Origin: a bacterium
Lineage (GTDB): Bacteria > SZUA-182 > DTGQ01 > JAFGSM01
Direction of reading: 5' to 3'
Assembly: GCA_049472355.1 (NCBI GenBank)
Contig: JBLIRP010000004.1
Span: 1-64,000, forward strand
Length of the DNA stretch: 64,000 bases
Both the position numbers and the translations under genes were made by a program. Below, in pieces: positions 34,803 to 64,000 of the stretch. Within the stretch, counting starts at the first letter, position 1. Each line of letters starts with the position of its first letter. The notes below the pieces were generated by a model. The model did no database searches. It saw nothing but the letters and a program-made list of their open reading frames with translations, and was not told the origin of the DNA.

Positions 34803-37800
34803 ATGGCTTCAAAAAACCGTCATAAAAAAATCAGTTTCATAACCTTGGCAGGCTCGATTCTTCTTCTGTTTTTCTGGGTAAATACTTCCCGGGCGCAAAC
34901 GGCTGCCGAATACATTGCACAGGGGAGGGCGCATCTCTCACAGCATACGATGGAAGGTCTCATGAATGCCCATTCGAAATTTCAGGCAGCACTGGTGATT
35001 GAACCCAATAATCCAGAGGCCAATTTTTTCTTTTCGCTCACTCGCCTGCCTGCACTTTTGGATAATTCCGCATCATATACCGATGGTTTTCCCATTGAAA
35101 ATGCCAAGGAACTCTTGGATGGTCTTGATGTGGATGCGGAAGGGAGGGACCTCTTTGAATGGGAAGCCAAATTCACTGAAGACGGCAGCGGGGATGTCCT
35201 TTTGCCTTCTGATTCCCCCACAGGTGATGTAGTTCAGGATTTTTTAACATCTGTCATCATGTCCGAGATTGAAGGGGTACTTACCGATCTCACCAATTTG
35301 GATGCGACATTTACTACCGTGTTGACCGCTTCGGAGACCGGAGAGGAACAAGATATTGAGATCGATTATGGGGATATCCTTTTGTACCGATCCCTACTGA
35401 ATGTCGCCAAGATGGGGCTCTCTTTCATATCCGCCTACGACATGGATGTGGATATCGATACCTTAGTGAATATGAACAGCGAGCTTTTTGATGTGGACGA
35501 GGATCTTCTCGATGTTTATCCGAACCTGTTGACACTGCTCTTGGATGGCGACGATCTCATGGCTGATGCAGGGAATGCCCTGCTCTCGGCCATTGATGCC
35601 TTTGATGAGGCCTCTTTGTTCATTCAGGAGACAGAAACGGACAACCAGGAGGACGATCTTGTCACCCCTGATGAAATAGCCGGAGGTGGTGATTTCAAAT
35701 GCAAACCAATAGTGGAACAGATCAAAGGCTCCCTGGTGAACAAGGAGCCTGCAGACCTTTCGCGCATTGAGGAAACCTGGGAATTGACGGATGATCATGG
35801 AAATACCATCCTTATGAGAATAGAAAAAGACCATGCCGGCAATTTCCTGGGCGGGGACTTTCACGGCATCGATGGTTGCAGTTTTCTGGCCTGCCGCGGA
35901 TGGGTTGAAGACTTCTCAATGGTGGACTCAAATATAGTCATCACCACTGCATGCGGGGGCGGGTGTCCTTGCTCAGCCATACTCGAAGGTCGGATGAACG
36001 AAGATGGGACGCGAATCATTTCAGGGACGTATCTGTCGCAGGATTGTCTCGAAACTGTATCCGGGACCTTTACCGGACTAAGGACCGAATATGAAGAGAC
36101 TCCTATGAGGATTGATGTGAGCGAGTTCTTTGACGACCCCATCAGCATCCGGGATTATCTGCCTGGGCTTACCCATGATCCATACACACGTGAGATCATG
36201 CTGGCAAAAAGTCTTATGGAGTCTTTCCCGGACCGGACCCTGTCGGGCATCTTTCCTGACGGATTGCCGGTCGAAGGATTCGGGCTCGATCTGGTCACGA
36301 TCCGAGGGGGAAGCGCATCCGGGGGGTCTTCTTACGGCGTTGCTTCATGCCTTGTGTGGGGCCTTGCCCCCTGGGATATCGAGTCCCTCACCATTTATGG
36401 TCCTCTGGGTTTGCAGTATGAATTTGATCTGGAAAAGGACACCATGGTGTTTTACAAATACGGGATGATGTATAACGTTAGTGCTCCTTCCTATCCGCCT
36501 GAAGGGTGGTATGAATTTGTTTTGATCGACAAACAGGGTCGAAGCGTATCTGCAGGCAGATATTTCACCCCCAATCCCATCGATGTGGTGGATATAGCAA
36601 CAGGCGAATCTCCCGCAGACAAGGCCTATGTAAACACCCTGACGCCTGCCTTGAACTGGTCGCCTGTGACGGATGAACGGATTGATACGCTATATTACAG
36701 GGTGAATATCATGGACTGGAATGGGAAGGTCAATGTCTATTCATCCGACAGGGTTGCAGGCACGACAATAACGGTGCCGGCGGGTATCCTGATGCCCAAC
36801 GAGGTCTATCAATGGAATGTTCGGGTATTTGACAGCGCGAACGGCACCAGTGCGAATAATTTTTCTTCCAGTGATTGGAAGGTCTTTTGCACAGGCGGTG
36901 AAAACGATCCGCTGAATATCGAATTGGCCTTTGTTCATAGCAGGGTGGAGCCAGATGATATGCATGACATGACCCTTTTTGCCATCGATATAGACGGGCC
37001 TGCACCCTATGATATCGGCTCCCTGGCAGTGTCAGGCCCGGGAGGATTCTCGCATACCTTCGACCCCATCGATGATTACCATTCCGATATCTACCTGCAC
37101 CACGAAGACGGTATCCTTACGGACGGGACCTATACCTTTACTATTGTGGATGATCGAGACGGCAACACACTGTCTGTTGACCGGGATTTTACTTTCAATC
37201 GCCTGCCCGTCCCTGAAGAGCTGCATACCCCATCCTTTGAGTCATATGTCCGGACGACCACGCCAACCTTCAGCTGGAGCAGGGCACATGACGAGACGGT
37301 GGATCCCCTCTCCTATCGGGTGATGATCTATGATTATAATCATAACATTATTTACAAATCTCCTCGCTCCCCGGAGACATCCGCAACGGTTCCCCCGGAT
37401 TGCTTGAAAATCCATAACCCCTATTTCTGGCGCGTTCAGGTGTTTGATGGGACCTCCACGATTCAAAACAGCGCGGTTACGAATATGATGCCCTTTTATG
37501 TTGTAGCGGACAATCCACCTTCGATCATTTCAGGACAGATTGAGACAGGGATGAGCGGTTATACGGGCGGCGATATCTTCGTCTGCGTGTTCGATCAGGC
37601 CCTGCAACCTCTTGCATCTCCCCTCTTCTGTGTCACCCTTTCCGATATAGGTTCGTATACCCTGTATGACCCGCCTACCAATACGGATCTTTATATCTAT
37701 GCCCTCTGGGACAAGGACGGGAGTGATTGTTACACAGCCGGTGACTGGGCGGGGATATACGCTGAAAATCCGGTTGTGCTCGACGACGGCGGTATTTTTA

Positions 37801-41323: not shown

Positions 41324-43183
41324 GTGGACGCAATGATGCAAAGGGCAAGATGTCTATGCATCCTGACGGTCTTTATCGTGCTGCTTACCTTGATGACAGG
41401 TATGGCCGGGGCGAAGACGGGGACCGAGCACCCATTCCTTTTGGACGTTCCCGCCTCCTATAACCTGCCGTTGTGGATGTATTCCTGGAATCCCTCTTTG
41501 GCCTGGAAGGGCATGGCCGGGGCGAAGATAGAGATCCAATATCCAGTCCCTTTGGACATTCCCGGCTCTTATACATCATCGATAGGGATGCCTTTATGGA
41601 ATACACCCTTAGGCCGGATCGGGAATGGCCCTGCCGATCACCTCAGTCATGCCTATTATGCATGGTTGTATCCATCAACCCTCAATTATATTCCCCTGTG
41701 GTCCCATCCATGGTTCTATTCCTCTTCCCCATCCCAAAAAGCGGCAAAACCGTTCCACCCTGTTTTTGAGAACCTGAGTCTTTTCAAAATGGGCCCTCTC
41801 TATGCCCAAATCGATGAGCCCTACCGATATCTGTTCATCGCTGATTATACATATCATACATCCGAGAGCATAGAGTTGTACTTTATGGATGGTGATCAGC
41901 TCTCATGTACCAGTATTTTTGATCTCTTGCTTCATCCCGTAGAATTCCTCCTCTTTGTCAACGACCCCAATGATCCGAATGATCCGGTGGCGAAATACTG
42001 GATGGATCTCGGGGCGGACCCGGCCCTGTTTGGTGAAAACGATCCGCATATGGCTGCCCTTTTCGGCAGGGCATCGTTCAAGGTCGATCTCGACCTGCCC
42101 ATCTTTGCTGACCCGAATCTAAGGTTCGGTGGTCATTTGGCGGAGAGGATCATCGAACAGGGCCATATGGGGTGGAAGGTAACCGTGAATGGAGCTGTTC
42201 AGGGGCAGCCCCTGCAGATCAATCCGCTCCCGGTGGACCCCTATGATGGTATGCCCACCTATCTGCCGGCAAACTATACCGCGGTCAAGACGATAGATGC
42301 CTATGCCAAGCCATTCTATCGTATGGACGTTGTGTTCGTTCTGGAGGGCGCGCTGTGGAACTCCGGTGTGTCGGTCTGGCCGAATGTGGCTGCACTGGAT
42401 TACACGCCGCAGGATTTTGAAGACCTGATGGTGACCATCGAGGTGACCAACGGAATAGATTCGGAGGTCAGCATCTTTCCCATCACCGTACTTGATTACC
42501 CTGTGGAAAATTATGATCCTGTGCCGGCATCCGATGAGGTCGAACTGACAGTATATGTGGGAGAATCGTTTCGTTATGCTCTTTGGTGCATCGACCCGGA
42601 TTGTTTCATCTTCTCACAGGCTTACAATCTGTATGGAGAGGTCCCTGACACCACGCATGTGCCTTGGAATGCCCCGGGCATGGCATTCAGGACTGACATG
42701 TCCTCCCTGGAATGGGACATTCCGGGGGACTACTCCATCAGCAACTTCAATCCATCCTCGGGGCTCATCTCATGGGTCCCGGTGCGTGAAGGGATTCATA
42801 CTATGGTCGTGACCTGTTCGGACAACCATGGCGGTACCGCCGACATCGAATTGAAAATCTCCACTGAATGCCGCGGAGGCCCCTGCAATAATCCGCCCAT
42901 CATCACAGGCGCTCCCACACAAATCCTGACAATCATTGCCGGACAGGAGTTCGTCCTGGGTCCACCCGATTTCTCAGTGGAAGATCCGGATTACGATGAG
43001 ATCTACGCATCCTGCAATGTCGGTTCCTGCGAGAGGGATGGGGATGGCAACTTTGTGTGGAAATTTCAGAGCGACTTCCCAGGCTCTTATATGGTTGAGA
43101 TCATCTTCCACGATATCAGAGGGGGACATGCAATAATGGAATTCTTTGTGGACGTGCAACCATGGTGGGTGAATCCTTCATGA
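41324..43183 (+). CDS. Secreted hypothetical protein (619 aa) with an N-terminal signal peptide. The likely start is ATG 41333.
   Basis: MMQRARCLCILTVFIVLLTLMTGMAGA signal. There is an internal duplication (MAGAKTGTEHPFLLDVPASYNLPLWMYSWNPSLAW / MAGAKIEIQYPVPLDIPGSYTSSIGMPLWNTPLG). C-terminal beta-rich Ig-like regions. No catalytic motif recognised. Confidence 0.6.
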   Translation: MDAMMQRARCLCILTVFIVLLTLMTGMAGAKTGTEHPFLLDVPASYNLPLWMYSWNPSLAWKGMAGAKIEIQYPVPLDIPGSYTSSIGMPLWNTPLGRIGNGPADHLSHAYYAWLYPSTLNYIPLWSHPWFYSSSPSQKAAKPFHPVFENLSLFKMGPLYAQIDEPYRYLFIADYTYHTSESIELYFMDGDQLSCTSIFDLLLHPVEFLLFVNDPNDPNDPVAKYWMDLGADPALFGENDPHMAALFGRASFKVDLDLPIFADPNLRFGGHLAERIIEQGHMGWKVTVNGAVQGQPLQINPLPVDPYDGMPTYLPANYTAVKTIDAYAKPFYRMDVVFVLEGALWNSGVSVWPNVAALDYTPQDFEDLMVTIEVTNGIDSEVSIFPITVLDYPVENYDPVPASDEVELTVYVGESFRYALWCIDPDCFIFSQAYNLYGEVPDTTHVPWNAPGMAFRTDMSSLEWDIPGDYSISNFNPSSGLISWVPVREGIHTMVVTCSDNHGGTADIELKISTECRGGPCNNPPIITGAPTQILTIIAGQEFVLGPPDFSVEDPDYDEIYASCNVGSCERDGDGNFVWKFQSDFPGSYMVEIIFHDIRGGHAIMEFFVDVQPWWVNPS

Positions 43184-48058: not shown

Positions 48059-49744
48059 GTGGACCTCGATGACAAAAGGGAATTGATCAAGGATTTTGTC
48101 GATGAATCCTGTGAGTTCATTGACGGGTTTGAAGGCCTGCTCCTTGAGCTGGAGCAGGGGGTGGGAGGGACCCCGGACGCAAATCTGCTGAGCGAGATCC
48201 TGCGGCAGCTTCACACCTTTAAGGGCAATTCCGGGATGATGGGGTATTCCCACCTCCAAACCTACGCCCACCGGATGGAGGACCTCTTCAAGGCGCTCCA
48301 GGCTGGTGATGCAGAGTGCGATGCAGAGCTCGTCGAATTTGTCATGCAGTGCACGACCATCATCCGCACCGCTATTGATCAAATCTCTAAAGACACCAGC
48401 GTCGAGCCCTCCCTTGCCAAAGAAATTGAGGCACTGGAGGCATTTCTTGACCAAAGGCGGGAGAGGGAATCCGAAAATACGGTGATTCATCACGTCGCCT
48501 CGGCCAAGGAGCACTTCAATCCCTTTGCGCAGAAGACCAATCTGCTCAAGGTCGATTTCGAGCGTATGGATCACCTGCTGAACCTGATGGGAGAGATGGT
48601 CATTCAACGAACCCGCCTCGGGCAGATTGATGTCCAGTTCAAGGAGGCATTCGGGGAACGGGGAGTGGTGATGGACCTTTCCAACACCGCGGAGCAGATG
48701 GGCAAGGTCACCACCGAGCTTCATGAGGCCATCATGAAGGTGCGGATGCTCCCCATTAAGCAGGTGTTCATGCGGTTTCCCCGATACGTAAGGGACTTTT
48801 CCCGTGAAAGGGGAAAGGAGATCAACCTCCGGTTCGAGGGTGAGGAAACGGAGCTCGACAAGACCGTGATCGATGAGATCGGGGAGCCCCTCATGCACCT
48901 GATCCGCAACGCCATCGACCATGGTATCGAAAAACCCGAGGAGCGAAAGGCATTGGGGAAGCCTCCGGCAGGGTTGATCAAGCTCAAGGCATACCAGGAA
49001 TCAAGCCACATCATCATCACCGTCGAGGATGACGGCAAGGGCATTGATGAGGAAAAGCTGCGCACAAAGGCCGCACAATCCGGACTCCTTAAAAAGAATG
49101 AGACATCCTCACAGGATCTCATGAACCTGATCTTCATCTCCGGTTTCTCAACCGCAGAGCGCGTTACCGAGGTCTCAGGCCGCGGTGTGGGGATGGATGC
49201 AGTCAAAAAGAGCCTGGCAAAAATCAACGGTTCCATCGAGGTCGAAAGCATTATCAACATGGGGACCCGTTTCACCATCAAGCTTCCCCTTACATTGGCC
49301 ATTATCACTGCACTCATGGTTGACGTCTCCGGCGAGCAATACGCCATTCCCCTCACCTCGGTGGTGGAGAGCATTCGCATCGGGGATGAAGAGATCCATC
49401 TCGTCAACAACCGGGAGGTGACCCGGGTCCGGGACCGCATCCTTCCCCTTGTCCGGGTGTCCGACCTGTTCGGGCTTGCTCGGGCCGCACACAAAAAGGG
49501 GAACTATGTGGTGATCGTTCAGAGCGGCATCCGTGAAATGGGTATCGTCGTGGATGCCCTCCTCGGGCAACAGGAGATCGTGATCAAGGCCCTGGACGAC
49601 TATATCAGTGGCTCGGCAGGGATTGCAGGGGCCACCATCCTGGGAGACGGAAAGGTGGTCCTCATCCTGGATGTCCTCGAGATGATCAATGAAGTCAGGG
49701 AATTCCATGAACAGGAAAAGCCATTGGAGGTACAGAATGCTTAA
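48059..49744 (+). CDS. cheA: Chemotaxis histidine kinase CheA (Hpt-dimerisation-HATPase-CheW-like domains). GTG start.
   Basis: Hpt phosphorylation site LHTFKGNSGMMG. HATPase G1/G2 boxes HLIRNAIDHGIE and GRGVGMDAV. C-terminal CheW-like regulatory domain. Confidence 0.9.
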   Translation: MDLDDKRELIKDFVDESCEFIDGFEGLLLELEQGVGGTPDANLLSEILRQLHTFKGNSGMMGYSHLQTYAHRMEDLFKALQAGDAECDAELVEFVMQCTTIIRTAIDQISKDTSVEPSLAKEIEALEAFLDQRRERESENTVIHHVASAKEHFNPFAQKTNLLKVDFERMDHLLNLMGEMVIQRTRLGQIDVQFKEAFGERGVVMDLSNTAEQMGKVTTELHEAIMKVRMLPIKQVFMRFPRYVRDFSRERGKEINLRFEGEETELDKTVIDEIGEPLMHLIRNAIDHGIEKPEERKALGKPPAGLIKLKAYQESSHIIITVEDDGKGIDEEKLRTKAAQSGLLKKNETSSQDLMNLIFISGFSTAERVTEVSGRGVGMDAVKKSLAKINGSIEVESIINMGTRFTIKLPLTLAIITALMVDVSGEQYAIPLTSVVESIRIGDEEIHLVNNREVTRVRDRILPLVRVSDLFGLARAAHKKGNYVVIVQSGIREMGIVVDALLGQQEIVIKALDDYISGSAGIAGATILGDGKVVLILDVLEMINEVREFHEQEKPLEVQNA

Positions 49745-51122: not shown

Positions 51123-53537
51123 ATGGAGGGAGGAAAGATGAAATTCACAATCGGAACAAAACTCATCGGGGGATTTATCATCGTATCACTTTTAGTCGCG
51201 ATTGCCGGAGGTTTGGGACTCTCTGCCATGAAGCGTATAAGCACTGCAGCAGATCAAGTAATCAACGAGGAAGTACCAATCGTCAAGGAAACCCTGAACC
51301 TGAAAGCCTATTCTGTTGTTGCCCGGGATGCCATGGCGGAGTATCTCCTGAAAGATACGGACAAGATCGAAGAACTCACCGACATTAATTCCGAATTCAG
51401 GAACACCATCCAGGCAATCGAAATGCGCACCCAGGCCATCATTTCAGGGAATGAAGACCTGCATATCAAGGCGGCATCGTCGGACTCAAAGATCATCCCA
51501 AGCTGTAGAGAGATCCTCAGCATCAATAATAAATTAAAAGACAACGCGAATGAGCTCATGAAGACTCACCGAGAGGCCCTCGAGTTGAAGACTCAGCCCG
51601 GAGCCAAGATGGAAGAAATGGATGCCATGGCAGATGAACTTCTCGATACTGCCAGGGAAGAAAATTTTTCCGTTGAAACAATTACCTCTCTCTGGGCACA
51701 GGTAATGGCGGTAAATGATTTCCTCATCACCGGGGAAGACGAAGAAATAAAGGCCTTCAAGGAATCGTTTGATATTGTTCGCTCCGATCCAAAATACTAT
51801 ACCATCAAATCGATGCACTCCAAGGTCACCCAACTGGGTGAAGAGACGATCAATCTCTTCAAAGAATACAAAAAAAAGGCGGATACCACGTTCGCCCTCA
51901 TGGAGATTGTTGATGAAACCAGTGAACAGCTTATGGATCTTTCCGATCATGTCTCCCAGGAGGCAATCAGAGGCATGAACGAATCCGTTCTCTCCGCCCA
52001 GGGGGTGAGAAAGGCCTCTCAAAATCTGCTTATATCAATTACGACAATTGCGCTTATATCAGCCATCTTGATTGGTTTCCTCCTCGCCAGAGGGATTACA
52101 AGGCCGATCTCCCTGTGCGTGGAATTCGCCAAGCAGGTGGCCCGCGGCGACCTCTCCAGGCAGGTGGAGATCAATACCCAGGACGAGACCCGCGACCTGG
52201 GCGACGCCCTGAACGGCATGTTCGGGTACCTGAAGGGTATGGCGGAGGTGGCCGACGGGATCGCCGGGGGCGACCTCACCATGCACGTGAAGCCCGCCTC
52301 CGAGCACGACGTGTTCGGCAACTCCTTTACCAGGATGGTGGGGAGTTTGCGGGACATGGTCGGCAAGGTGCGCACCTCCTCCGAGTCGGTGGCGAGCGCC
52401 GCCGACGAGATCTCCGCAGCCACGGACCAGATCACCAAGGGGGCCCAGAACCAGGCGAGCGCCTCGGAGGAGACCGGCTCCACCATGGAGGAGATGTCCG
52501 TACAGATCCAGAACGTGGCAAAGAACGCCGAGGGGCTTGCCCGGAACGTGGACGAGACCACCAGCTCCATCCAGCAGATGGGGAGCACCGCCGAGGGTGT
52601 TGCCAAGATGGCCGAGTCCATGGCGAGCAACGTGGCGGAGACCAGCTCCACCATCGAGCAGATGATCGTGACCCTGGAAAAGACCGCAGCCAATGTGAGT
52701 GAGGCGGACAAGCTCTCCAAGCAGGCGAGCGATGAGGCAGTCAACGGCGGTGACGCGGTCATGAAGATGGTGGAGGGGATGAAGATCATCGGCGAGATGA
52801 TGGGGAACATCACCGGCGTAATCCAGAGCCTGGGACAGCGCTCCGAGGCCATCGGCTCCATCGTGAAGGTGATCGAGGAGATCGCCGACCAGACCAACCT
52901 GCTCGCCCTGAACGCCGCCATCGAGGCCGCCCGGGCAGGCGAGGCGGGACAGGGATTTGCGGTGGTGGCGGACGAGGTGCGCAAGCTCGCCGAGCGGTCG
53001 GTCAAGGCCACCAAGGAGATCGGCGACGTGATCAAGCAGGTGCAGGCGGAGACCACCTCTGCGGTGAAGGCGACCGAAGAGGGTGCAAAGAGCTCCAGGG
53101 AGGGATTGGGCCTTGCCGATCAGGCAGCGAGCGCCATCGCCCGGATCATGGATTCGGTAAAGTCCACCTCCAACATCATGCAGGAGATCTCACGGGCCAC
53201 CACCGAGCAATCCACCGCGGCAAGGAACGTGGTGGCAGCGGTGGAGGAGATGAACAGGCTCACCCAGTCGGTCACCCAGTCCACCAGCGAGCAGGCTGCC
53301 GGCATCCAGCAGGTGGTAAAGGCAGCGGAGGCAATGAGCCAGCTCACCGAACAGGTGAAGAACGCCACCACGGAGCAGAAGAGAGGCGGCGACAACGTGC
53401 TCAAGGCGGTGGAGAACATCAGCGAGATCGCCAAGGGAAACCTTTCGGCGGTGGAGCAGCTCTCCCGTTCCGCCAAGGACATGGCCAGGCAATCAGAAGG
53501 GCTTCAGGAACTGGTCCAGACATTCAGGCTGAGCTAA
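51123..53537 (+). CDS. Methyl-accepting chemotaxis protein (MCP) with a large periplasmic/helical sensor region, HAMP and a 40H-class signalling domain
   Basis: Highly conserved signalling hairpin [38 protein letters not shown] motif after the second TM. Methylation-site heptads. Confidence 0.9.
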
Positions 53538-54394: not shown

Positions 54395-55324
54395 ATGGCA
54401 CATTGTTCATCCGATGTGTTCGAAGATCTTCAGAAGCTCATCTACGATCATTGCTCCTTGCGATTTTCGCCCTCCCGGCTGAACGGCCTGAAGACATACC
54501 TTTCGGAGAGGATGCACAGGCGGGAGCTTTCCTCGCTGGAGGACTATTACCGCCTCCTCCGGAGGGACAATGAGGAATTCGATGCACTCGTCAACGGCAT
54601 CACCACCAAGGAGACCTATTTCTTCCGCCTCCCCGATCAATTCAAGGCGATCACCAGCCTGGTCATCCCCCGGATCGAACAGCGGCTTTTGCAGGATGCC
54701 CAGCGGGTGATCACCAAACAAGGCTGGTCCGGCCCCCGCATCATTCCCTTCCGGATCTGGAGCACCGGGTGTGCGACCGGTGAAGAGCCTTATTCCATCG
54801 CCATGACCATCCTGGAAGGCCTCAGGTATCCGAAGGCATGGAAGGTGGATATCATGGCAAGCGACATCAGCAGGGAGGCGGTGACCACTGCATGCACCGG
54901 GCGTTATGAATCCGATGTGCTGAAACGCATCCCTGTACAGTATCAAAAACGGTATCTGAGACAGTCCAACGGCAGTGCAGTGATGGGTGATGATCTCAGG
55001 GAACGGATCGCGTTCCGTATCTTTAACCTGCGTAATCTCGCCCCGCGGCGAGGGTGCCCCTGCACCTTCACAAAGCTGGACGGGACCAGCGACATGATTG
55101 ACCTGCATGAGTATTTCGATATCGTCTTCTGCAGGAACGTCATGATATATTTCGATTTCGCTGCCCAGCAGCAGCTCATCGATCGACTCTATGCATGCCT
55201 GAAACCCGGGGGGTATCTTTTCACCGGGGATGCGGAACTCCTCCACATCTATCAGCACCGATTCCAGACCCTGGAATGCGAAGGCGCCTACTTTTACCAT
55301 AAACCGGAGGGGCAGCCATGTTAA
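54395..55324 (+). CDS. cheR: Chemotaxis protein methyltransferase CheR (copy 1)
   Basis: N-terminal CheR all-alpha domain (FEDLQKLIYDHCSLRF...ETYFFR) and the SAM-binding domain IWSTGCATGEEPYSIAM...FCRNVMIYF. Confidence 0.85.
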   Translation: MAHCSSDVFEDLQKLIYDHCSLRFSPSRLNGLKTYLSERMHRRELSSLEDYYRLLRRDNEEFDALVNGITTKETYFFRLPDQFKAITSLVIPRIEQRLLQDAQRVITKQGWSGPRIIPFRIWSTGCATGEEPYSIAMTILEGLRYPKAWKVDIMASDISREAVTTACTGRYESDVLKRIPVQYQKRYLRQSNGSAVMGDDLRERIAFRIFNLRNLAPRRGCPCTFTKLDGTSDMIDLHEYFDIVFCRNVMIYFDFAAQQQLIDRLYACLKPGGYLFTGDAELLHIYQHRFQTLECEGAYFYHKPEGQPC

Positions 55325-57708
55325 GGAAACCGCACACAACGAATCTTCTCGAAGGGGCACCCGCACGGCTGCGCTCCAGGGTCGAGGAGACACGCTATGC
55401 AGCGGTTAAGGAACTATCCCGGATCCAATCGGTCGATGTGCTCCCCCATCTCTTGAAAGCGGTCGGAGACACAAGCTTAAGGATCAGGGAGGAGGCCCTG
55501 CAGGGCATCTGCTCCTTCCCGCAGGAGGTGATCTTTCCAAGGCTCGAGGATTTATTAAGGGACCAGGAGCATGCGCATTTCCGTACCGCGGCCATGGAGG
55601 CATTTCCGCGCTACGGCAAGGAGGCAACTCCCTGGCTTCTCGGATTGCTCAAGGATGGCGATGAGGAGGTCCGCATGTTCAGCGCCGCCATCCTCGGGGA
55701 CATCAGGGACCCGGCAGCAGTGGAGGATCTCATTAATGCCCTCAACGACCCGGATGATAATGTAAGGCATGCATCCGCTGAAGGCCTCGGCAAGATCGGG
55801 GATGCACGGGCGGTGCGCCCCCTCATAGACTGCCTTCACCAGGACTTCTGGATTCAATACCCGGCAATCATCGCCCTCGGAAGGATCGGTGACCCCTGTG
55901 CCATCGAACACCTCCTCCCGCTTCTTGATGACGAGATGCTCCGGCAGGCGGTGGTCGAATCCCTCGGACAGATCGGTGATGTTGCGGCAATCCCCGCGCT
56001 GACGGGGGCGCTTTCCTGCAACGATCCTGCCCTACGGAACGATACGATCGCCTCTCTGGTCAATATCCAGCGAATGGCAAAACCGAAGGGAGGGTGTCTG
56101 CCGGGCATCAAACACGCCCTCAGGAATGGCGATCTGATCGAGCATTTGCTGCGCTCCCTCCAGGACGGCGATCTGGAGATACGGAGGAATGCCGTCATCG
56201 CACTGGGATGGCTCAAGGATAAACGGGCAGTGGCGCCCCTCGTGGCACTCATGACCAGCTATGACCTGGAGGAATATGTGGTCGGAGCCCTGGTTTCCAT
56301 CGGCGACGGCGCTGTTCCCTGCATCATCGAAGGGCTCCACAACCCAGATCCGAGAATCAGGGCATGTATCATCCGCTGCATCGACTGGATAGGAAACAGA
56401 CAGGGGGTAGAGGCCTGCATCCCCTGCCTCAAGGATGAGAACATTGAGGTACGCAATCAGGCGGCAATGGCCATGGCAGGGTGGCTGGATCTGGCGGCGA
56501 TAGAGGATGGTCTCTTCGAGTCCCTTTCCGACCCTGAGCCGGAAATGAGATCCCTTGTGGCGGAGATCCTGGGGAGGTCCTCATCGAAGCGCCTGGTCGA
56601 CAGGCTTTTGCCCGAACTCTTCGTGAAGGACCGCTCAAGGAGGCTCCTTGCAATCACTATCCTTGGTCGATTAAAAAATCCCCGCACCTGCAGTCCCCTC
56701 AAGGGTCTCCTTGAAGACCCGAGCGACGAGATACGGTCCGCGGCGTATATCGCACTGAGCAGCCTGACGGTTAAAGGGCTTTCCGAAGAGCTCCTCGCGA
56801 GGGGAATCACCGATGCAAGTCCCAGGGTGCGCAAGGCCGTTGCATCGAGCATCACCGCTGAAACGGGAACTCCGCTCGAAGGCACGCTCCTCGTGCTCCT
56901 CGGGGACCAGGACCAGGATGTCAGGCTTGCGGCAATCGAGGCGCTGGGGAGGATCGGCGATCCGTGCTGTGCCGAGGATCTTGTCCGGGCCTTTTCCGAT
57001 ACGCCTAAGCACCTGGGTCTTGCAATCCTGAGGGCCATGGGGAACCTCCGCACCGCGAGGAGTCTCCGCTTCCTCACCGGGTTCCTCAAGAGACACGACC
57101 GTGACCTGAAACGTGTGGCCATCGAATCACTGGGGATGCTCAAGGACAAAGGATCAATCCCCGACCTGATCGTGGCCATGGATGATTGCGACTGGAGTAT
57201 CCGCAGCGCCGCCGTCCAGGCCCTTGCACAAATAGGGGACCGGCGATGTTCGGGCGCGCTCCGCAAAAAATTGAAGGACCCGGACGATATTGTCAGAAAG
57301 GAGGCGGTCCGTGCCCTGGGTATGCTCGGAGACCAGGCAGCGGCAAATGCCCTGCTTCCGTTCCTGCACGACGAGCACGTTCAGGATGAGGTCCTGAATT
57401 CCCTGGAGACGCTTGGGATCCCTGATCTGGTGGCCTTTGCCGAGCACTTCAGACGGTCGAATGCCCGGCTCAAGTGCCGCCTTATTGCCCTGCTCGGACG
57501 GCTCAGGGAGCCGGGGATGGTCGAGTTTCTCACCGGGATACTGGACGAGGAGTTTTTCACGGTACGATGCTGGATAGCCAAGGCCCTCGGCAACCTGGGG
57601 GACCCGCGGGCGATCCCACCCTTACGCAGGCTCCGGAAGGAAGACCCAAGCGAAGAGGTGCGGAAGGAGGCCACGGCTGCCCTGAAAAAATTGGGGGACA
57701 GGCGATGA
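55318..57708 (+). CDS. HEAT/PBS-lyase repeat protein (about 20 tandem HEAT-like repeats) embedded in the chemotaxis operon
   Basis: The PBS-lyase HEAT-like unit (..R..A..ALG.IGD..A...L...L.D.D..VR..A...L) recurs across all 796 aa. The stop overlaps the cheR2 start (ATGATGA). Confidence 0.75.
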   Translation: MLRKPHTTNLLEGAPARLRSRVEETRYAAVKELSRIQSVDVLPHLLKAVGDTSLRIREEALQGICSFPQEVIFPRLEDLLRDQEHAHFRTAAMEAFPRYGKEATPWLLGLLKDGDEEVRMFSAAILGDIRDPAAVEDLINALNDPDDNVRHASAEGLGKIGDARAVRPLIDCLHQDFWIQYPAIIALGRIGDPCAIEHLLPLLDDEMLRQAVVESLGQIGDVAAIPALTGALSCNDPALRNDTIASLVNIQRMAKPKGGCLPGIKHALRNGDLIEHLLRSLQDGDLEIRRNAVIALGWLKDKRAVAPLVALMTSYDLEEYVVGALVSIGDGAVPCIIEGLHNPDPRIRACIIRCIDWIGNRQGVEACIPCLKDENIEVRNQAAMAMAGWLDLAAIEDGLFESLSDPEPEMRSLVAEILGRSSSKRLVDRLLPELFVKDRSRRLLAITILGRLKNPRTCSPLKGLLEDPSDEIRSAAYIALSSLTVKGLSEELLARGITDASPRVRKAVASSITAETGTPLEGTLLVLLGDQDQDVRLAAIEALGRIGDPCCAEDLVRAFSDTPKHLGLAILRAMGNLRTARSLRFLTGFLKRHDRDLKRVAIESLGMLKDKGSIPDLIVAMDDCDWSIRSAAVQALAQIGDRRCSGALRKKLKDPDDIVRKEAVRALGMLGDQAAANALLPFLHDEHVQDEVLNSLETLGIPDLVAFAEHFRRSNARLKCRLIALLGRLREPGMVEFLTGILDEEFFTVRCWIAKALGNLGDPRAIPPLRRLRKEDPSEEVRKEATAALKKLGDRR

Positions 57709-58544
57709 TGTACGAGTTCGAAATTACCGAAAAGGAATTCCGCCTGATACGGGATCTCATCCACGAACGATTCGGGATCTTCTTCAAGGACGAAAAACGC
57801 TCGTATATCCAAATGAGGCTCTATGCACGCCTGACGAGCCTTGGATTCGGTTCCTTCAGCGAATACATCAACTTCGTCAAATACGACCCTCATGCACACG
57901 AGGAACTCCTGCGGATGATCTCGCTGCTGAGCAACACCGAAACCTACCTCTTCCGCGAGCTGCCCCAATTGCTGATCTTTCGTGACCACCTCCTGCCGGA
58001 ATTCAAGGAAAAGGCCATCGCCAGGAATGAAAAGACGCTCAAGATCCTCTCGGCAGGGTGCTCTTCCGGAGAGGAGGCGTACACCCTTGCCATGCTGACC
58101 CATGATTCGGGCTCCTTCTTCTGGGGGTGGGACATCACCATAACCGGGATGGACATAAACGAAAGGGCACTTGAATCCGCCTGCCACGGAATATATTACG
58201 AACGGTCATTCCGGATGACCGACCCGGCGTACCAAAGGAGATACTTTACAGCGAACTCCGGCGATTTTTTGGTCAAGGAGAACATACGAAGGATGGTCTC
58301 GTTTATGTGCGGGAACATTGTCACCCCCCTCCCTATCAGGGATTTCGATATCATCCTGTGCAGGAATGTGCTCATCTATTTTTCCGAGGAAAAGACGAAA
58401 ACCGCCATAGGCAATCTCCATGACGCCCTGCGTCCCGGAGGCTGTCTTCTGCTCGGACATTCGGAGACCCTGACCGGGATATTCGACGAATTCGAAACAC
58501 GACGTTTTCCAGAAACCATCATCTACCAGAAGAAAGAACGTTAA
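57705..58544 (+). CDS. cheR: Chemotaxis protein methyltransferase CheR (copy 2). The start is the ATG overlapping the HEAT-protein stop.
   Basis: MMYEFEITEKEFRLIRDLIHERFGIFF...ETYLFRE then ILSAGCSSGEEAYTLAM...LCRNVLIYF: the CheR N-domain and methyltransferase domain. Confidence 0.8.
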   Translation: MMYEFEITEKEFRLIRDLIHERFGIFFKDEKRSYIQMRLYARLTSLGFGSFSEYINFVKYDPHAHEELLRMISLLSNTETYLFRELPQLLIFRDHLLPEFKEKAIARNEKTLKILSAGCSSGEEAYTLAMLTHDSGSFFWGWDITITGMDINERALESACHGIYYERSFRMTDPAYQRRYFTANSGDFLVKENIRRMVSFMCGNIVTPLPIRDFDIILCRNVLIYFSEEKTKTAIGNLHDALRPGGCLLLGHSETLTGIFDEFETRRFPETIIYQKKER

Positions 58545-58548
58545 GGAT

Positions 58549-59613
58549 ATGTCTTCGCGCAGAATAGGCGTATTGATCGTTGATGATTCGGCCTTCATCC
58601 GCAAGGCCATGAAACGGATGCTCGGCTCCGATCCGGCAATCAAGGTTGTCGGAGAGGCACGCGACGGGTACGAGGCAATCCAAATGGTCAAGGGGCTCAA
58701 CCCGGATGTGGTCACCCTGGATGTGAAGATGCCGGACATGGACGGCCTCCAGGCGCTTGAACGCATCATGCGCGAACATCCCGTCCCCGTTCTCATGGTC
58801 AGTTCCCTGACCAGCGAGGGAGGCGCCGTTACCCTCAAGGCGCTGGAGATGGGCGCCGTGGATTTTATCGACAAGTCCTCCTGTCATACCGCCATGGACA
58901 TTGCCGACATTGCCGCATCCCTCATCCAGAAGGTCAAGGTGATTGCAGGAGTGGACCTGAAAAAGGTTGTGGAGTCAATGCCGGAACACAGGCCGGTGTC
59001 GCCGGCCACCCCTTCCGCACTCAGCGCGACCCGGGATGAGAGCCCTGCCCTCCTGGTGGCCATAGGTACCTCCACGGGGGGGCCCATGTCCCTGGAGAAG
59101 GTTCTTACCCCGCTGCCTGCGAACTTTCCCGGCACCATCCTGGTGGTACAGCACATGCCCCTCGGATTCACCGGTTCCCTCGCCCAGCGCATGAACAACC
59201 AATGCCCCATGGAGGTGAAGGAGGCGGAGGAGGACGATCCGCTTTGTCCGGGAAGGATCTATATCGCGCCCAGCGGGTATCATCTCAAGCTCAGGCGGTC
59301 ATTGAACCGCTACCATGTGGTCTTGAGCAAGGAACCCCGGGATATGCCCCATTGCCCATCCGTGGATGTCATGATGGAATCGATCGCGCAGACGTGGCAT
59401 GGAAGGATGATGGGCGTGGTCATGACCGGGATGGGACATGACGGTTCAGAGGGGGTCAAGGCCATGAAGCAGCGGGGAGGAACCATCCTCGCCCAGAACG
59501 AAGAGACGTGTGTGGTCTACGGCATGCCAAGGGCCGCATACCTCACCGGGTGCGTCGACCGGATGCTCCCCCTCTATGAGATAGCCAACGCAATATGCCT
59601 GTTCGCACGTTAA
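58549..59613 (+). CDS. cheB: Chemotaxis response regulator protein-glutamate methylesterase CheB
   Basis: The receiver domain (VLIVDDSAFIRK...VVTLDVKMPDMDG) plus the methylesterase catalytic domain (IGTSTGGP...HMP.GFT..LAQR..., Ser-His-Asp triad context). Confidence 0.9.
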   Translation: MSSRRIGVLIVDDSAFIRKAMKRMLGSDPAIKVVGEARDGYEAIQMVKGLNPDVVTLDVKMPDMDGLQALERIMREHPVPVLMVSSLTSEGGAVTLKALEMGAVDFIDKSSCHTAMDIADIAASLIQKVKVIAGVDLKKVVESMPEHRPVSPATPSALSATRDESPALLVAIGTSTGGPMSLEKVLTPLPANFPGTILVVQHMPLGFTGSLAQRMNNQCPMEVKEAEEDDPLCPGRIYIAPSGYHLKLRRSLNRYHVVLSKEPRDMPHCPSVDVMMESIAQTWHGRMMGVVMTGMGHDGSEGVKAMKQRGGTILAQNEETCVVYGMPRAAYLTGCVDRMLPLYEIANAICLFAR

Positions 59614-59851
59614 AGAAAATATCCACGCCTCGACCTGTTGCATGGAGTCCTGACCTTCCCCGGATTGGATGCGACGGGTGTTCGGATCATGACCATTCCC
59701 TTTCCCAGCCGAATCCTGTAAATGGCCGATAACCGGAGCACGCCCAAAAGGATACCGAAAGGCTTTATTATAAGAGTGAACAAGGGGTGTGGTGTTGCAC
59801 TGTTTTAGTGTTGTGCCCTCCTTATTGCATCATCGCGCAATATTCGCCCGT

Positions 59852-59885
59852 TCCCCCGTGCGGGGACAAATCTTTTTTATCATTA
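59852..59885 (+). terminator. Rho-independent terminator-like hairpin (CCCCG-TG-CGGGG followed by ACAAATCTTTTTTA)
   Basis: Read directly, about 240 nt downstream of cheB. Confidence 0.45.
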
Positions 59886-60340
59886 ATATCAATTAGTTAT
59901 AATATTGCAGTGCTATGGGCATACGAAATGCAATTATACTATAACAAATCCCAACAATGACCAAAACTATACCTGAGGCAATTAATACATCGTTCTTAAC
60001 TGCTCTAAATCTCAAAAAACGGACTTTGTGAAAGGGGGTTTCCAAATGTTGTATCAATTGGTGTGGGTTCCGGTCCTTGGCAGCCTGAGCGTTCTGTGTG
60101 TCCTACTCTGCAACCGGGCGTAATGCTCTTTTAAAGGGAGGCATCCGGCAAGAGAACTCGTAAAAAATTAATCGTTCTTCATGACCTCTTCCCGGGCAGA
60201 CCCTGAAAGGAGCCCTTTTTCAAATCTAAATCCAACACAGTATATATCGATAACCTGTTACATTGAGATATTTGTTTAACAATGAGCGCTTTTTCCTAAA
60301 GGCTTCCCCTACGTATTTCTTTTAAGGCACTATCTCCTCC

Positions 60341-60380
60341 AAAAGGGGTACCGGATCCGGTACCCCTTTCTCTTTTTTCG
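60341..60380. terminator. Strong, possibly bidirectional intrinsic terminator. It is a perfect 22-nt palindrome GGGGTACCGGATCCGGTACCCC flanked by AAAA / TTTCTCTTTTTT.
   Basis: Read directly. The stem is >=11 bp with a following T-tract on the plus strand and an A-tract (T-tract on minus) upstream. Confidence 0.6.
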
Positions 60381-60823
60381 GCGACGAACGGGATACAAGA
60401 GCGAAACAGCATCACTTATCCGGCATCACAGGTGCTCGACTCATTGTATGAGGGAAGTGGGGCCGCTTAAAAAAATATGCTGCATCACATCCCCTTACGT
60501 AATTTTTATACGCAACCGATCATATTTTTTCCTTCCATCCCACAACAACTGCGTTCCCGCCTTCCGGGCCACATAACAGCATAACGATTTAACCTTTTGT
60601 TAAATATATAGTTCTTGAGAACAATCCCCATGGCATCTCCAAAAGTCGATCCCGCACTGCAATGGCATTGTATTTGCTCAACCTTACATTCGACAATATA
60701 TCACTCTAATACCGATGGTAATAGTAACAGGCGAAGTTCTATAAGGAGGTCGATGTCGTTTACCCACAAGCAGTTATTCGAGATTGGTTAACGTGCAAGG
60801 TTAGTTAACGCGGCAACGTAAGG

Positions 60824-63800
60824 ATGGAAATCATGATGAGACTCAACGTCAGAAGCATCGCCCACTTTTTGAGCCTTCTCCTTGTCATTCTTCTCCTTTG
60901 GGGCAGCAAAGGATTCCTGATTGCAAATCCCCTGGTGAGCGCACCGATTCTGCTTCTCTTTTCCATTCTCTATCTCGTCATCGGGCTGACGCTCGATTCC
61001 TCGTTCTTCGTCTATCCTGCGGTGGCCCTTTTCACCCTTGCTTACTATCTTGGCGCATATCACCTGCATCCCTATCCCATTCACGCACCGCTCCTCTCGG
61101 TCATCCTGGTCGGGATATTTCTGTGGGCCGCCTTCAAGTATCAGACGAAAAAAATCCTCTTTGCCCCTTTCAGACACGGCGCATACGGATTGGTAATATA
61201 CTTCACCATATTCCTGCTCGGCAAGGCGAATCATTATGTCCGGGCGGACCAGCTTATTCCGATGATCACCTTTGGCTCCTATGCGCTGGCGATCGGCATT
61301 CAAGGCCTCATTGACAAAAGGAGACGTTTTCGCTACTGGTCACTGATCAATGCATCCCTTGCATTTCTGTTTGCCCTGTATTCAATCAACCGGATCCCGC
61401 TGGGACACTATAGCATCTACCTCATGGCCTTCTTTGTCAGTATGATGCACATCGGCACCCTTGTTCACAGGAGGATGGGGTTCGGGGAGGCGCAACCGTT
61501 CTATTGGGTGGGGTTCTTCGGCCTTGCTTTCGGCCCGCTTTACTCCGTGCACAATCCGGGCATTCTCCTTTCACTTCAGGCGTTCTATGCACTTCATTTC
61601 TGGGAAATACACTATGAAATCAAAACAATAGAGCAAGGGGCCGTTACAAAGTGTAAAACATGCCGCGTATTCACTATGATGGTATATCCCTTGACCTTTG
61701 TCTGCCTTGCCCTGATCATCCAACAGCATTTTCCCATAACCTTTGCGGTCATCGGAGCCTGTCTCATCTTCGCATTCCTCTACTTCAAGATCGCCCACGA
61801 TCGTCGTGATTCCTGGAGGGGAAGGGACCTGTTCTTTGTCATTACCGGTACCATGTTTCTCACCATTGCATACCTCACCGGCCTGTTTCTCCTCCTGAAT
61901 CCGACCATCCATCCGTGGGCACTGCTTCTGTCCGTGCCGCTGGTGTGGCTCCTGCTCGCCATGGGGCGTATCTATACACACATAAAAAGCCAACAACTGG
62001 GAAGGGCTTTCTATTGGGTGCATTATGCAGTCATGGCAGTGTGTCTCGCTATGCCACTGTTTTTTAGAGCACAAAATATCACCGTTCTGCTGGTGCTCGA
62101 CAGCGCCTTCCTGGTCACCTGCCTCATGATGTACCTTATGGAACGTTGGTGGGGCTTTCTCTATGCCCTCCCCCTCACCCTGACCTATCTCTACTATCTG
62201 GCACTTCAGGAGGCCTTTGTCCCCCCACACTTCATCAGCCCGGCCTTCATCATTCCGGGGATCATTATCGTGTCCTTCGCCATCTGGCTGGTCAGAAAAT
62301 CATCCCGATGGCAGGGGATCTTTTTCCTCTGGTTTTATACCCTCAGTTTCTGTGCACTGATCACCCTTGATTGTTTTCATGTTACCATGGGGTACAGTCT
62401 GGCACTTTGGGGAGTCCTCTACCTCCTGGTGGGCACCTTCGCCAGGCTCCCTTCGGAACATCAGGGGTCATACTTTACCACCGCCGGACATACCCTGACC
62501 CATGCAGCCGCACTCGCCATCCTCCTGTTCTCCGCTCCGCAGGCAACGCTCCACGTATTCCTCATCATCGGCGTGCCGTATTTGATGATCTATCTCCATA
62601 CGAGGAGGGAAAGACACCTTTATACCGTTGCCGTTGCAGGCACAGTCAGTTACTTTCTCACCTTCCTGCACGGTCTTCCCTGGGACCTCGCCTGTCTGGG
62701 ATCGGTGCCCCTGGTCGCGCTCCTCTACGGCACCTGGGTCGCCATGGATCAGCGCCACCAAAAAGGCGCCGGCGTTCCACTCAAACGGGTCGGACATGCA
62801 ACGGCCATCGTTGTCACCCTCATGCTCATGTTCAATCTCTCCACGGCGACTGCCGGAGTGGCCATCACCGCATTCACGCTCTATGCAGTGATCTATTGCC
62901 TGCTCGCAATGCTTTACCGGACATACGATCTCATATTCCTGGGCATCGGCTTCGGCTCGCTGATATATTTCGAGATACTGGGTATCCCATCAACCATGCA
63001 GCCGGAAAGACACCTCCAGCTCTTCAGCCTCATCATGATCCCGCTGTCAGCCATCGGTTATTGGTTATGGAGGCGCACAAAGGAGGCATGGTCACTGCCC
63101 CTGCTCGATGCCGCGGTGATCGTCTCCCTTATCACCACACTCCTGTCCCTGTCCCAGGGCTTTGTGTGGACCACCCAGGTGATCCTGATCATCAGCGCCG
63201 TGCTGTTCATGCTCCTGTCCCTGGTCCTCAAAAAGGACCTCTACATCTTCCTCACCACGCTCTGTCTGGGGCTCTCCGCATACAATTCGCTCGTAGCCAC
63301 AAAGAATAAATTCGTCATCGATCTGGTGGTCTACTCGATCTATGCCCTGATCTTCATCGGGATCTTCTTCTTCCTTCCGGTATTCAAGCGTATCCTCAAT
63401 TTCCGGGGACCCCGTTACATGTTCAGGGCGATCAACTGGAAGGCGGTGCTCTTCTATGGATCATTCGGGGCGGTCATCGTGATCGTGTTCGTGTTCCTCT
63501 ACTCCCTCCAGCTTGCCAATTTCCCCGGATTCTGTACCAAATGCCACTTCATGAAACCCTATGCCGAGGCATGGGAGCATTCCACCCACAAGAATGTCAA
63601 TTGTGTTGACTGTCATTACGAACCGGGACTGAGACCGGTCGTTCAGGGAAAGATCAACGGACTGGTCTCGGTGGTCAAATATGTCACCAAGACCTATGCC
63701 ATCAAGCCAAATTCGGAAATAAGCGACGCAAGCTGCCTGCGAATCGGTTGCCACGACCGCATGGAGCTCCATAGCGAGATTACATTTAAAAACGACATCA

Positions 63801-64000
63801 AATTTAATCACTATCACCACCTCAAAAATCTCCGCAGGGGCAAACTACTTCGCTGCACCACCTGCCATTCGCAGATCGTGCAGGGTGAGCACATCACGGT
63901 CACCGAATCGATCTGCTTTACCTGTCATTTCAAGGGCAGGAACAGGCAGGGGGTGGGGATCGGACGGTGCATGATCTGTCATGATAATCCCTCCGAGCCG
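60824..64000 (+). CDS. Large polytopic integral membrane protein (about 30 predicted TM helices) fused to a C-terminal NapC/NirT/NrfH-type multiheme cytochrome c domain. The ORF is open to the window end.
   Basis: Hand translation from ATG 60824 (MEIMMRLNVRSIAHFLSLLLVILLLWG...) stays open for 1059 codons to position 64000. The C-terminal part has CTKCH...W..S.H...CVDCH, CLRIGCH, CTTCH, CFTCH and CMICH. The ORF is not in the supplied ORF track, presumably because no stop falls inside the window. Confidence 0.7.
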   Translation, partial: MEIMMRLNVRSIAHFLSLLLVILLLWGSKGFLIANPLVSAPILLLFSILYLVIGLTLDSSFFVYPAVALFTLAYYLGAYHLHPYPIHAPLLSVILVGIFLWAAFKYQTKKILFAPFRHGAYGLVIYFTIFLLGKANHYVRADQLIPMITFGSYALAIGIQGLIDKRRRFRYWSLINASLAFLFALYSINRIPLGHYSIYLMAFFVSMMHIGTLVHRRMGFGEAQPFYWVGFFGLAFGPLYSVHNPGILLSLQAFYALHFWEIHYEIKTIEQGAVTKCKTCRVFTMMVYPLTFVCLALIIQQHFPITFAVIGACLIFAFLYFKIAHDRRDSWRGRDLFFVITGTMFLTIAYLTGLFLLLNPTIHPWALLLSVPLVWLLLAMGRIYTHIKSQQLGRAFYWVHYAVMAVCLAMPLFFRAQNITVLLVLDSAFLVTCLMMYLMERWWGFLYALPLTLTYLYYLALQEAFVPPHFISPAFIIPGIIIVSFAIWLVRKSSRWQGIFFLWFYTLSFCALITLDCFHVTMGYSLALWGVLYLLVGTFARLPSEHQGSYFTTAGHTLTHAAALAILLFSAPQATLHVFLIIGVPYLMIYLHTRRERHLYTVAVAGTVSYFLTFLHGLPWDLACLGSVPLVALLYGTWVAMDQRHQKGAGVPLKRVGHATAIVVTLMLMFNLSTATAGVAITAFTLYAVIYCLLAMLYRTYDLIFLGIGFGSLIYFEILGIPSTMQPERHLQLFSLIMIPLSAIGYWLWRRTKEAWSLPLLDAAVIVSLITTLLSLSQGFVWTTQVILIISAVLFMLLSLVLKKDLYIFLTTLCLGLSAYNSLVATKNKFVIDLVVYSIYALIFIGIFFFLPVFKRILNFRGPRYMFRAINWKAVLFYGSFGAVIVIVFVFLYSLQLANFPGFCTKCHFMKPYAEAWEHSTHKNVNCVDCHYEPGLRPVVQGKINGLVSVVKYVTKTYAIKPNSEISDASCLRIGCHDRMELHSEITFKNDIKFNHYHHLKNLRRGKLLRCTTCHSQIVQGEHITVTESICFTCHFKGRNRQGVGIGRCMICHDNPSEP

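Follow-up and report, generated by a model that had tools for sequence, protein, structure and literature searches.

A rare giant membrane protein fused to an NrfH-like multiheme cytochrome and its possible link to bifurcating heterodisulfide reductases

The 64,000-nucleotide stretch analysed here (the window; positions 1 to 64,000 of contig JBLIRP010000004.1, assembly GCA_049472355.1, from a bacterium of the GTDB lineage SZUA-182) ends inside a very long reading frame, which raises the question of whether a NapC/NirT-type multiheme cytochrome can be part of a giant polytopic membrane protein and, if so, what such a protein does. A fusion of this kind had been proposed from the nucleotide sequence alone (the original prediction), with the suggestion that it is an unusual respiratory or extracellular electron transfer component. 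The frame is the first 80% of a rare inner-membrane protein of ~1,320 residues, in which a 32-helix membrane domain precedes an NrfH-like heme module. Its gene in most relatives is followed by genes of a heterodisulfide reductase (Hdr), and the reading preferred here, with a probability of roughly 0.55, is that the giant protein would be the membrane/periplasmic subunit of a quinone/cytochrome-linked, NADH-dependent bifurcating Hdr complex, a role inferred from sequence and gene order.

The frame on the plus strand stays open for 1,059 codons from position 60824 and continues past the window end, as had been predicted; at ~3/64 stops per codon, the chance of a stop-free run of this length is, by a rough estimate, ~1e-22. 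It was also correctly described as missing from the list of open reading frames (ORFs), because the frame runs off the window end and the program that made the list leaves out such ORFs. The gene probably starts at the ATG at 60833 rather than at 60824, since an AAGGA Shine-Dalgarno sequence at 60820-60824 stands ahead of this codon and the homologues of the giant protein begin with MIRLN.

The heme part of the frame has recognisable relatives. A transmembrane helix stands directly before four heme c motifs, as in the NapC/NirT family, with the deviations that this helix is not N-terminal and that one of the motifs is CX4CH. The predicted NapC/NirT-type signature CTKCHFMKPYAEAWEHSTHKNVNCVDCH is present, and the Pfam family NapC/NirT (PF03264) matched residues 875-959 over model positions 10-100 of 174 with 29.9 bits versus a cut-off of 24.1; Pfam otherwise gave a weak cytochrome c7 match at residues 993-1054 and nothing in the first 870 residues. 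The NrfH model TIGR03153 of NCBIfam was covered over positions 8-136 of 138 (E 2.7e-12), its equivalog cut-off not being reached (46.9 versus 134.2 bits). NrfH of Desulfovibrio vulgaris (PDB 2j7a_C) aligns with the stretch from the anchor helix through the first two hemes (E 7e-5 with the single sequence and 6.7e-10 with a profile), CTSCHIM of NrfH standing opposite the heme 1 motif CTKCHFM. In the NrfH structure literature, the methionine of the CXXCHXM motif is the ligand of the heme at the quinol site. Here, this methionine (Met910) is invariant in 30 of 30 sequences, and K943 is kept in 28 of them. By these sequence characters the module is classed as an NrfH-like member of the NapC/NirT superfamily, not as an NrfH orthologue, and it is a putative quinol dehydrogenase on the periplasmic face of the membrane.

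Six heme motifs lie within the window part of the frame. The original prediction had counted at least six CxxCH motifs, of which the number stands and the type does not: five are CxxCH and one, heme 3, is CX4CH, a form also found in cytochromes c3. Complete homologues, 1,320-1,440 residues long, carry 12 heme motifs (11 CxxCH and one CX4CH), having beyond the window six more CxxCH and a helical tail. In one of them (P0001), residues 1088-1306 weakly resemble OcwA (PDB 6i5b, E 1e-3), the nonaheme terminal reductase of Thermincola potens.

Ahead of the heme module, an AlphaFold2 model built on a 27-sequence alignment gives 32 membrane helices of 19-30 residues each, joined by loops of 2-12 residues, with a predicted local distance difference test score (pLDDT) of 81-93 over residues 10-830. 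With the anchor helix the chain crosses the membrane 33 times, which agrees with the earlier estimate of about 30 hydrophobic helices. Lysine and arginine, summed over nine diverse members, number 333 in the even loops (including the N-terminus) versus 63 in the odd loops; therefore, the N-terminus and the even loops are placed in the cytoplasm and the heme domain in the periplasm, the location which is required for the attachment of c-type heme. The loop ahead of the anchor helix is assigned to the cytoplasm because it is rich in lysine and arginine, and the anchor helix takes the chain to the periplasm.

The membrane domain is built of four-helix repeats of ~104 residues, and offsets of ~536 and ~102 residues recur in it. 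Two modules can be distinguished, of which B is homologous to the start of A: residues ~11-250 align with residues ~550-790 (hhalign, 98.7% probability, E 2e-16, 226 columns). Four of the eight repeat units (U1, U2, U6 and U7) align mutually in register with probabilities of 91-97% and scores of 37-54, versus at most 7% and at most 18.2 for reversed-sequence controls. The last ~80 residues of module B are the best-conserved stretch of the membrane domain.

Such a frame could also be an artefact of sequencing or assembly, or a chimera in which an unrelated membrane gene has been joined to a normal NapC-like gene of ~200 residues. What speaks for this explanation is the a priori oddity of the architecture, and nothing else was found. 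A sequence search among 5.8 billion protein clusters returned six relatives carrying generic database names such as 'NapC/NirT family cytochrome c'; four are complete (1,321-1,336 residues, 57-92% identity, 100% coverage of the window fragment), and a distant one (P0006) has 1,005 residues and 27% identity. The same six proteins were recovered by a word-indexed search with a profile of nine membrane domains. When one genome per GTDB species was scanned, the giant architecture was met again in proteins of about 1,320-1,430 residues, with the first heme at residue ~900-1,005, in metagenome-assembled genomes (MAGs) labelled 'bacterium', Actinomycetota, Planctomycetota, Nitrospiraceae, Omnitrophota and Hydrogenedentota. 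More than 20 independent assemblies, with at least six taxonomic labels, preserve the fusion, and the continuous architecture recurs in NCBI, JGI, ENA and Logan assemblies of different samples and taxa. A full HMMER pass over 1.84 billion representatives, made with the membrane domain alone, brought up no more than 100 proteins (E <= 1e-3). The giant family is thus rare but widespread.

Some lineages encode the protein in two pieces. The N-terminal halves (P0012-P0022) are proteins of ~540 residues without hemes, which match profile positions 6-540 only and correspond to module A. The C-terminal halves, of 590-820 residues, begin at profile position ~550 and run into an 8- or 12-heme domain; at locus L070, a 541-residue N-half gene lies 4 nt upstream of the C-half gene. 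The natural split point thus falls at residue ~545, within the membrane domain, module B being always on the same polypeptide as the cytochrome, and the junction of membrane domain and cytochrome (~63450) is never broken. A stop or frameshift near 63450 that splits off a NapC-like gene had been anticipated as the weak point of the fusion; it was looked for and not found. The junction residues W872, P901, F903 and C904 are conserved across clades, and the topology is consistent across the junction. Because the gene is continuous, the junction residues are conserved and the splits occur elsewhere, the artefact can be regarded as effectively refuted. The fusion of a polytopic membrane domain with a multiheme cytochrome is genuine, occurring as one continuous gene in independent assemblies over 15-92% identity.

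The number of hemes varies in the family, being 4 (the Omnitrophota form), 8-9, 12 or 17, while both the membrane domain and the NrfH-like module are retained throughout. The most reduced member, encoded at L004 8482-13354 in an Omnitrophota MAG, has 1,005 residues and only the four NrfH-like heme sites.

The membrane domain itself gives few indications of function. Different clades share only 15-21% identity in it. Its size and the number of its helices are strictly conserved, and wherever a residue is retained in at least 85% of 30 sequences, it is Pro, Tyr, Gly, Thr, Trp or a hydrophobic one. In the same 30 sequences the domain has no invariant His, Cys, Asp or Glu and no conserved intramembrane acidic or basic residue; the best histidines (H14 in 20, H215 in 20 and H658 in 21 of the 30) are all at the cytoplasmic surface. 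Searches for relatives gave nothing consistent in Pfam at E up to 10, no match to the membrane part in NCBIfam, no match in a PDB sequence search with the membrane-domain profile, and nothing at E <= 0.001 in a Foldseek search of the PDB, where the template-modelling (TM) score was at most 0.26. Known membrane families (transporters, NrfD, cytochrome b, CcsBA/ResBC and DUF-type families) were rejected, there being no Pfam, NCBIfam or PDB-profile match, and so was a site for heme b or another cofactor in the membrane, as there is no invariant His, Cys, Asp or Glu. The cytochrome c synthases CcsBA and ResBC are recognised by a WWD domain and conserved heme-handling histidines; no match to PF01578 or PF05140 and no conserved His or Trp-rich motif was found in the domain.

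The missing library relatives and the lack of invariant His or acidic residues argue against a b-type cytochrome and against a conventional pump or transporter. Thus, the description of the domain as transporter-like in the original prediction is unsupported, with no transporter family match, no fold match and no conserved polar membrane residue. A redox-driven ion pump, or a transporter of heme, lipid or quinone, would explain why so large a domain keeps its size and helix number so strictly, but only Pro, Tyr, Gly, Trp and hydrophobic residues reach 85% within the membrane, no charged or polar residue is conserved there, no sequence match points to such a family and the loops are merely 2-12 residues long, so that we consider this role improbable. 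We read the domain as a helical-repeat platform of a fold without known relative, and it may be a new fold.

The gene neighbourhood is more informative about the possible function. Downstream sequence is available for 19 distinct loci, and in 16 of them hdrC and hdrB lie directly after the giant gene; the typical order is the giant gene first, then hdrC, hdrB, hdrA, mvhD and a NADH module (FlxCBA or NuoEF-like). The distance from the stop of the giant gene to the start of hdrC was measured at 15 loci and lies between -23 and +37 nt at 12 of them. Two related loci, L001 and L011, share 91% DNA identity with the window and are syntenic with it upstream through cheW-cheR-HEAT-cheR-cheB; there, hdrC follows 12 nt after the giant gene, and then come hdrB, hdrA, mvhD, flxC, flxB and flxA. 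The gene set of the FlxABCD-HdrABC type, with hdrA, hdrB, hdrC, mvhD/flxD and the gene of the NAD/FAD subunit flxA in one cluster, is present in L011, L003, L008 and L010. The hdr order recurs in every clade of the GTDB scan and in the split form, and in Actinomycetota- and Planctomycetota-labelled and some other lineages a NuoE/NuoF-like NADH module is inserted.

The downstream products have the characters of their families: HdrC has two CX2CX2CX3C motifs, HdrB two CCG and CX2C motifs and no transmembrane segment, HdrA is matched at 2e-238, the MvhD-like protein matches VhuD/MvhD, and FAD/NAD- and Fe-S-binding domains are present in the FlxA-like protein. Against the menaquinol-reactive CCG protein SdhE (1e-50), the HdrB-like protein scores as highly as against HdrB (2e-46), so a CCG protein facing quinone is conceivable. 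The hdrCBA-mvhD-flx operon, present in most relatives, points to a link of the giant protein with flavin-based electron bifurcation, not simply with extracellular electron transfer. The prediction of an unusual respiratory component is retained.

Synteny with hdr is not universal, this possibility being rejected since of four further lineages two had hdr and two did not. Three loci (L072, L075 and L069) are without hdrC downstream. A 12-heme member at L072 950-7411 has no hdr neighbour; an Rrf2 regulator is upstream of it, and genes of the large and small subunits of a [NiFe] hydrogenase are convergent. At L069, a cupredoxin-like gene is downstream on a short contig. The member at L075 8001-19690 and L076 has 8 hemes and 1,229 residues, and its gene is overlapped by that of an NfnB/GltD-like NAD(P)H flavoprotein with two 4Fe-4S domains, followed further downstream by genes of a Rieske protein, cytochrome b, cytochrome c, a 782-residue multiheme protein and a molybdopterin oxidoreductase; upstream are a UbiA prenyltransferase gene and a small ORF of 50-54 codons. 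The exception at L075 still fits a NAD(P)H-linked theme. No nrfA neighbour was seen at any locus examined. At L004, a separate gene of an 81-residue c3-like cytochrome stands ahead of hdrC, and alternative heme biosynthesis (ahb-like) genes, a 274-residue NapC/NirT gene and a c554-like gene are upstream.

How the complex would work can be outlined as follows. NADH (-320 mV) can reduce ferredoxin (~-450 mV) if its second electron goes to menaquinone (-74 mV). HdrA would split the electron pair of NADH. One electron would go uphill to ferredoxin and the other downhill, by way of HdrC, to the HdrB CCG clusters, with HdrB docked on the cytoplasmic side of the 32-helix platform, which is rich in lysine and arginine. 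Menaquinone, rather than a soluble heterodisulfide, would be the high-potential partner and would be reduced by HdrB at the cytoplasmic face. The quinol might then be re-oxidised at the periplasmic face by the NrfH-like heme 1 with release of protons outside, as in a redox loop, and the 12-heme wire might hand the electrons to periplasmic or extracellular acceptors. The 32-helix domain would be mainly a platform, perhaps a quinone corral, and not a catalyst. The reverse direction of the whole path would be equally possible. Two described systems come near to parts of this scheme: HdrCBA-MvhD of Sporomusa ovata is membrane-attached and quinone-linked (PMC9430772), and for HotSeep-1 a complex joining a c-heme CCG protein with HdrA has been proposed (PMC10553843).

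Several points weigh against this assignment. The window ends inside the giant gene, and the hdr genes of this genome are read across from L001 and L011; the three loci named above have no hdrC downstream; and the membrane domain of the 30 sequences has no conserved quinone-site or docking motif. Without hemes b, the giant protein offers no electron path across the membrane, and for this reason the quinone shuttle is pure inference. Further, according to PMC10553843 (citing Ramos 2015 and Ferreira 2023), the Flx-Hdr complexes that have been characterised to date are soluble ones working with DsrC. A bolder form of the Hdr reading, tentative and to our mind rather doubtful, is that the 32-helix domain, as a new kind of membrane module, the outer heme 1 and the inner CCG clusters of HdrB might make up a self-contained quinone redox loop, by which bifurcation would become directly respiratory. 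If this is true, a complex not recognised before would couple the oxidation of NADH to the reduction of ferredoxin and to the delivery of the second electron to the periplasmic c-hemes, with build-up of a proton-motive force. In the opposite direction, the loop could use ferredoxin together with electrons from the periplasm or from outside the cell to form NADH.

Another explanation might be that the giant protein is a stand-alone dehydrogenase of the ImcH or CbcL kind, which oxidises menaquinol for cytochrome c or extracellular electron transfer, the hdr-flx genes being co-regulated neighbours, not bound partners, that serve, for example, NADH balancing during the same respiration. It accommodates well the NrfH-like module with its invariant CXXCHXM, the likeness of the C-terminal part to the terminal reductase OcwA, the loci without hdr, and the extra NapC/NirT and c554-like genes found upstream in L004, L010 and L073. 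It also agrees with ~50 single-helix paralogues from Aminicenantes, Marinimicrobia and others (400-700 residues, 12 or 18 hemes, up to 53% identical in the heme region), which adjoin NrfD-like or cytochrome b genes and other multiheme genes in Cbc-like clusters. These paralogues, however, have no adjacent hdr genes, bar one divergently oriented cluster, so the hdr association belongs to the giant form. The stand-alone explanation also leaves the conserved 870-residue membrane domain without a role, and has to account for hdrC-hdrB being directly next in 16 of 19 loci, overlapping or 10-37 nt apart, where the membrane domains are only 15-21% identical. We hold it to be unlikely. A neighbour-joining tree built on the NrfH-like region, rough and not robust, groups the single-helix paralogues with 12 and 18 hemes (L018-L068) in one clade beside the giant subclade of the window. 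These paralogues may descend from the giant architecture, or an exchange of the heme module may have taken place.

The preferred reading, an Hdr-linked membrane subunit, can be compared with the known systems. As in NrfH, NapC, NirT and CymA, a membrane helix is followed at once by heme 1 in a CXXCHXM motif and by three more heme sites within ~115 residues. Unlike in these proteins, the anchor is the 33rd helix, after 870 residues and 32 helices, heme 3 is CX4CH, there are eight extra hemes, and the gene has Hdr as its neighbour rather than NrfA, NapAB or a Tor/Dms reductase. In Geobacter, ImcH and CbcL carry multiheme c domains on extra membrane helices (~3 in ImcH, and a six-helix diheme-b HydC/FdnI domain in CbcL) and pass electrons between the quinone pool and periplasmic carriers. 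The giant protein is like them, by description and not by sequence comparison, in combining a multiheme c domain with extra membrane helices, and differs in its 32 helices, the absence of heme-b ligands and the Hdr operon.

In the TmcABCD, HmcABCDEF and DsrMKJOP complexes of sulfate reducers, a concept cited in PMC10553843, a membrane subunit connects a multiheme cytochrome c in the periplasm with an Fe-S protein with CCG domains (HdrB/HdrD-like) in the cytoplasm, the membrane being crossed by a diheme cytochrome b (NarI/HdrE-like) and/or NrfD subunits. The giant protein resembles them in its 12 heme motifs and in the CCG protein gene adjoining it in 16 of 19 loci. It differs in that it has neither a diheme cytochrome b nor NrfD (no Pfam match, no invariant His), and it is partnered by a whole HdrCBA-MvhD-Flx/NuoEF set, which includes a bifurcating HdrA, instead of by HdrD alone.

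Downstream of the giant gene lie genes for all seven soluble subunits of FlxABCD-HdrABC, in the order hdrC-hdrB-hdrA-flxD(mvhD)-flxC-flxB-flxA. This NADH dehydrogenase/heterodisulfide reductase, as described in PMC10553843 (citing Ramos et al. 2015), is soluble, uses DsrC and, unlike the giant system, has no dedicated membrane or cytochrome subunit. QmoABC, HdrDE and HdrCBA-MvhD-MetVF of S. ovata (PMC9430772) likewise have an Hdr-type module at the membrane with a quinone partner, which for the giant system is proposed. QmoC and HdrE are heme-b membrane proteins, in contrast to the c-heme giant protein, and for the S. ovata complex no membrane anchor is known (PMC9430772), a place for which the giant protein, whose gene is in the same operon as hdr, is a candidate. 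No description of the giant membrane-cytochrome architecture was found in the full-text literature searched.

Research on anaerobic bioenergetics still seeks to explain how soluble bifurcating Hdr complexes are joined to membranes, quinones and respiration, and the giant cytochrome is a concrete candidate for the missing membrane link in several uncultured lineages. If this is true, it would connect the NADH/ferredoxin pools in a new way with electron acceptors or donors in the periplasm or outside the cell. Apart from this, an 870-residue domain of 32 helices in repeats, without a Pfam or PDB relative, is an unexplored membrane-protein architecture.

Table 1. Coordinates of the giant gene, its domains and heme sites, and of other features of the window.
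Feature	Residues	Positions	Strand	Basis
Giant membrane-cytochrome gene, 5' part		60824-64000	+	1,059 of ~1,320 codons; gene extends past the window
Membrane module A, transmembrane helices 1-20, five four-helix units	1-545	60824-62458	+	AlphaFold2 helices, split forms, repeat analysis
Membrane module B, transmembrane helices 21-32, three four-helix units	546-862	62459-63409	+	hhalign, conservation
33rd transmembrane helix, NrfH-type anchor	872-899	63437-63520	+	AlphaFold2 helix; aligns to NrfH anchor, PDB 2j7a_C
NrfH-like tetraheme module	901-1015	63524-63868	+	Motifs, PF03264, TIGR03153, 2j7a_C
Heme 1, CTKCH-F-M (CXXCHXM)	904	63533-63553	+	Motif
Heme 2, CVDCH	927	63602-63616	+	Motif
Heme 3, CLRIGCH (CX4CH)	971	63734-63754	+	Motif
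Heme 4, CTTCH	1011	63854-63868	+	Motif
Further c-heme domain, start		63869-64000	+	PF14522 cytochrome c7-like, E 4.6e-4
Heme 5, CFTCH	1031	63914-63928	+	Motif
Heme 6, CMICH	1049	63968-63982	+	Motif
Small ORF, 25 codons		60046-60123	+	
Conserved block, ~75 nt		60297-60378	+	
Intrinsic terminator of the conserved block		60342-60369		
Terminator of the che operon		59850-59867		
Chemotaxis cluster		54395-59613	+	
HEAT-repeat protein gene in the chemotaxis cluster		55318-57708		
Methyl-accepting chemotaxis protein gene		51123-53537		
CheA gene		48059-49744		
1,993-residue ORF		34803-40784	+	PF25788, E 5e-8
619-residue ORF		41324-43183	+	
SPFH/Band 7-radical SAM protein gene		6407-8461	+	

Two small elements precede the giant gene (Table 1). 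The first is a 25-codon ORF with a strong ribosome-binding site GAAAGGGGG, encoding the hydrophobic peptide MLYQLVWVPVLGSLSVLCVLLCNRA. It is conserved at the same position in L001, L003, L005, L006, L007, L008 and L011. All members of the window clade, down to 57% identity of the giant protein, have this ORF ~700-780 nt ahead of the giant gene, and its product might serve as a leader peptide or as a small membrane subunit. The second is a block of ~75 nt (AAAGGCTTCCCCTAC...AAGGCACTATCTCCTCC), which ends in a perfect 12-bp hairpin and a T-run, an intrinsic terminator closing the block. It is 86-90% conserved in loci with coding DNA only ~65% identical. An Rfam search of the window and the upstream spacer gave nothing significant and no family for the block, and no RNA covariation was seen in it, the sequences being too similar to show it.

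Further upstream, a second terminator closes the che operon. In the chemotaxis cluster, a 796-residue protein consisting entirely of HEAT repeats is encoded between two CheR genes, followed by CheB, an arrangement which L001 shares; genes of a methyl-accepting chemotaxis protein and of CheA are upstream of the cluster. The sole Pfam match of the 1,993-residue ORF is one Ig-like domain, and the 619-residue ORF after it has no Pfam match. Besides the che cluster, the window contains the housekeeping genes atpA, dxs and leuA. Its AtpA is 100% identical to a protein of an NCBI MAG labelled 'bacterium' and ~66% identical to those of the nearest named relatives, Spirochaetota. A 684-residue protein carries an SPFH/Band 7 domain fused to a radical SAM and a SPASM domain, which is an unusual combination.

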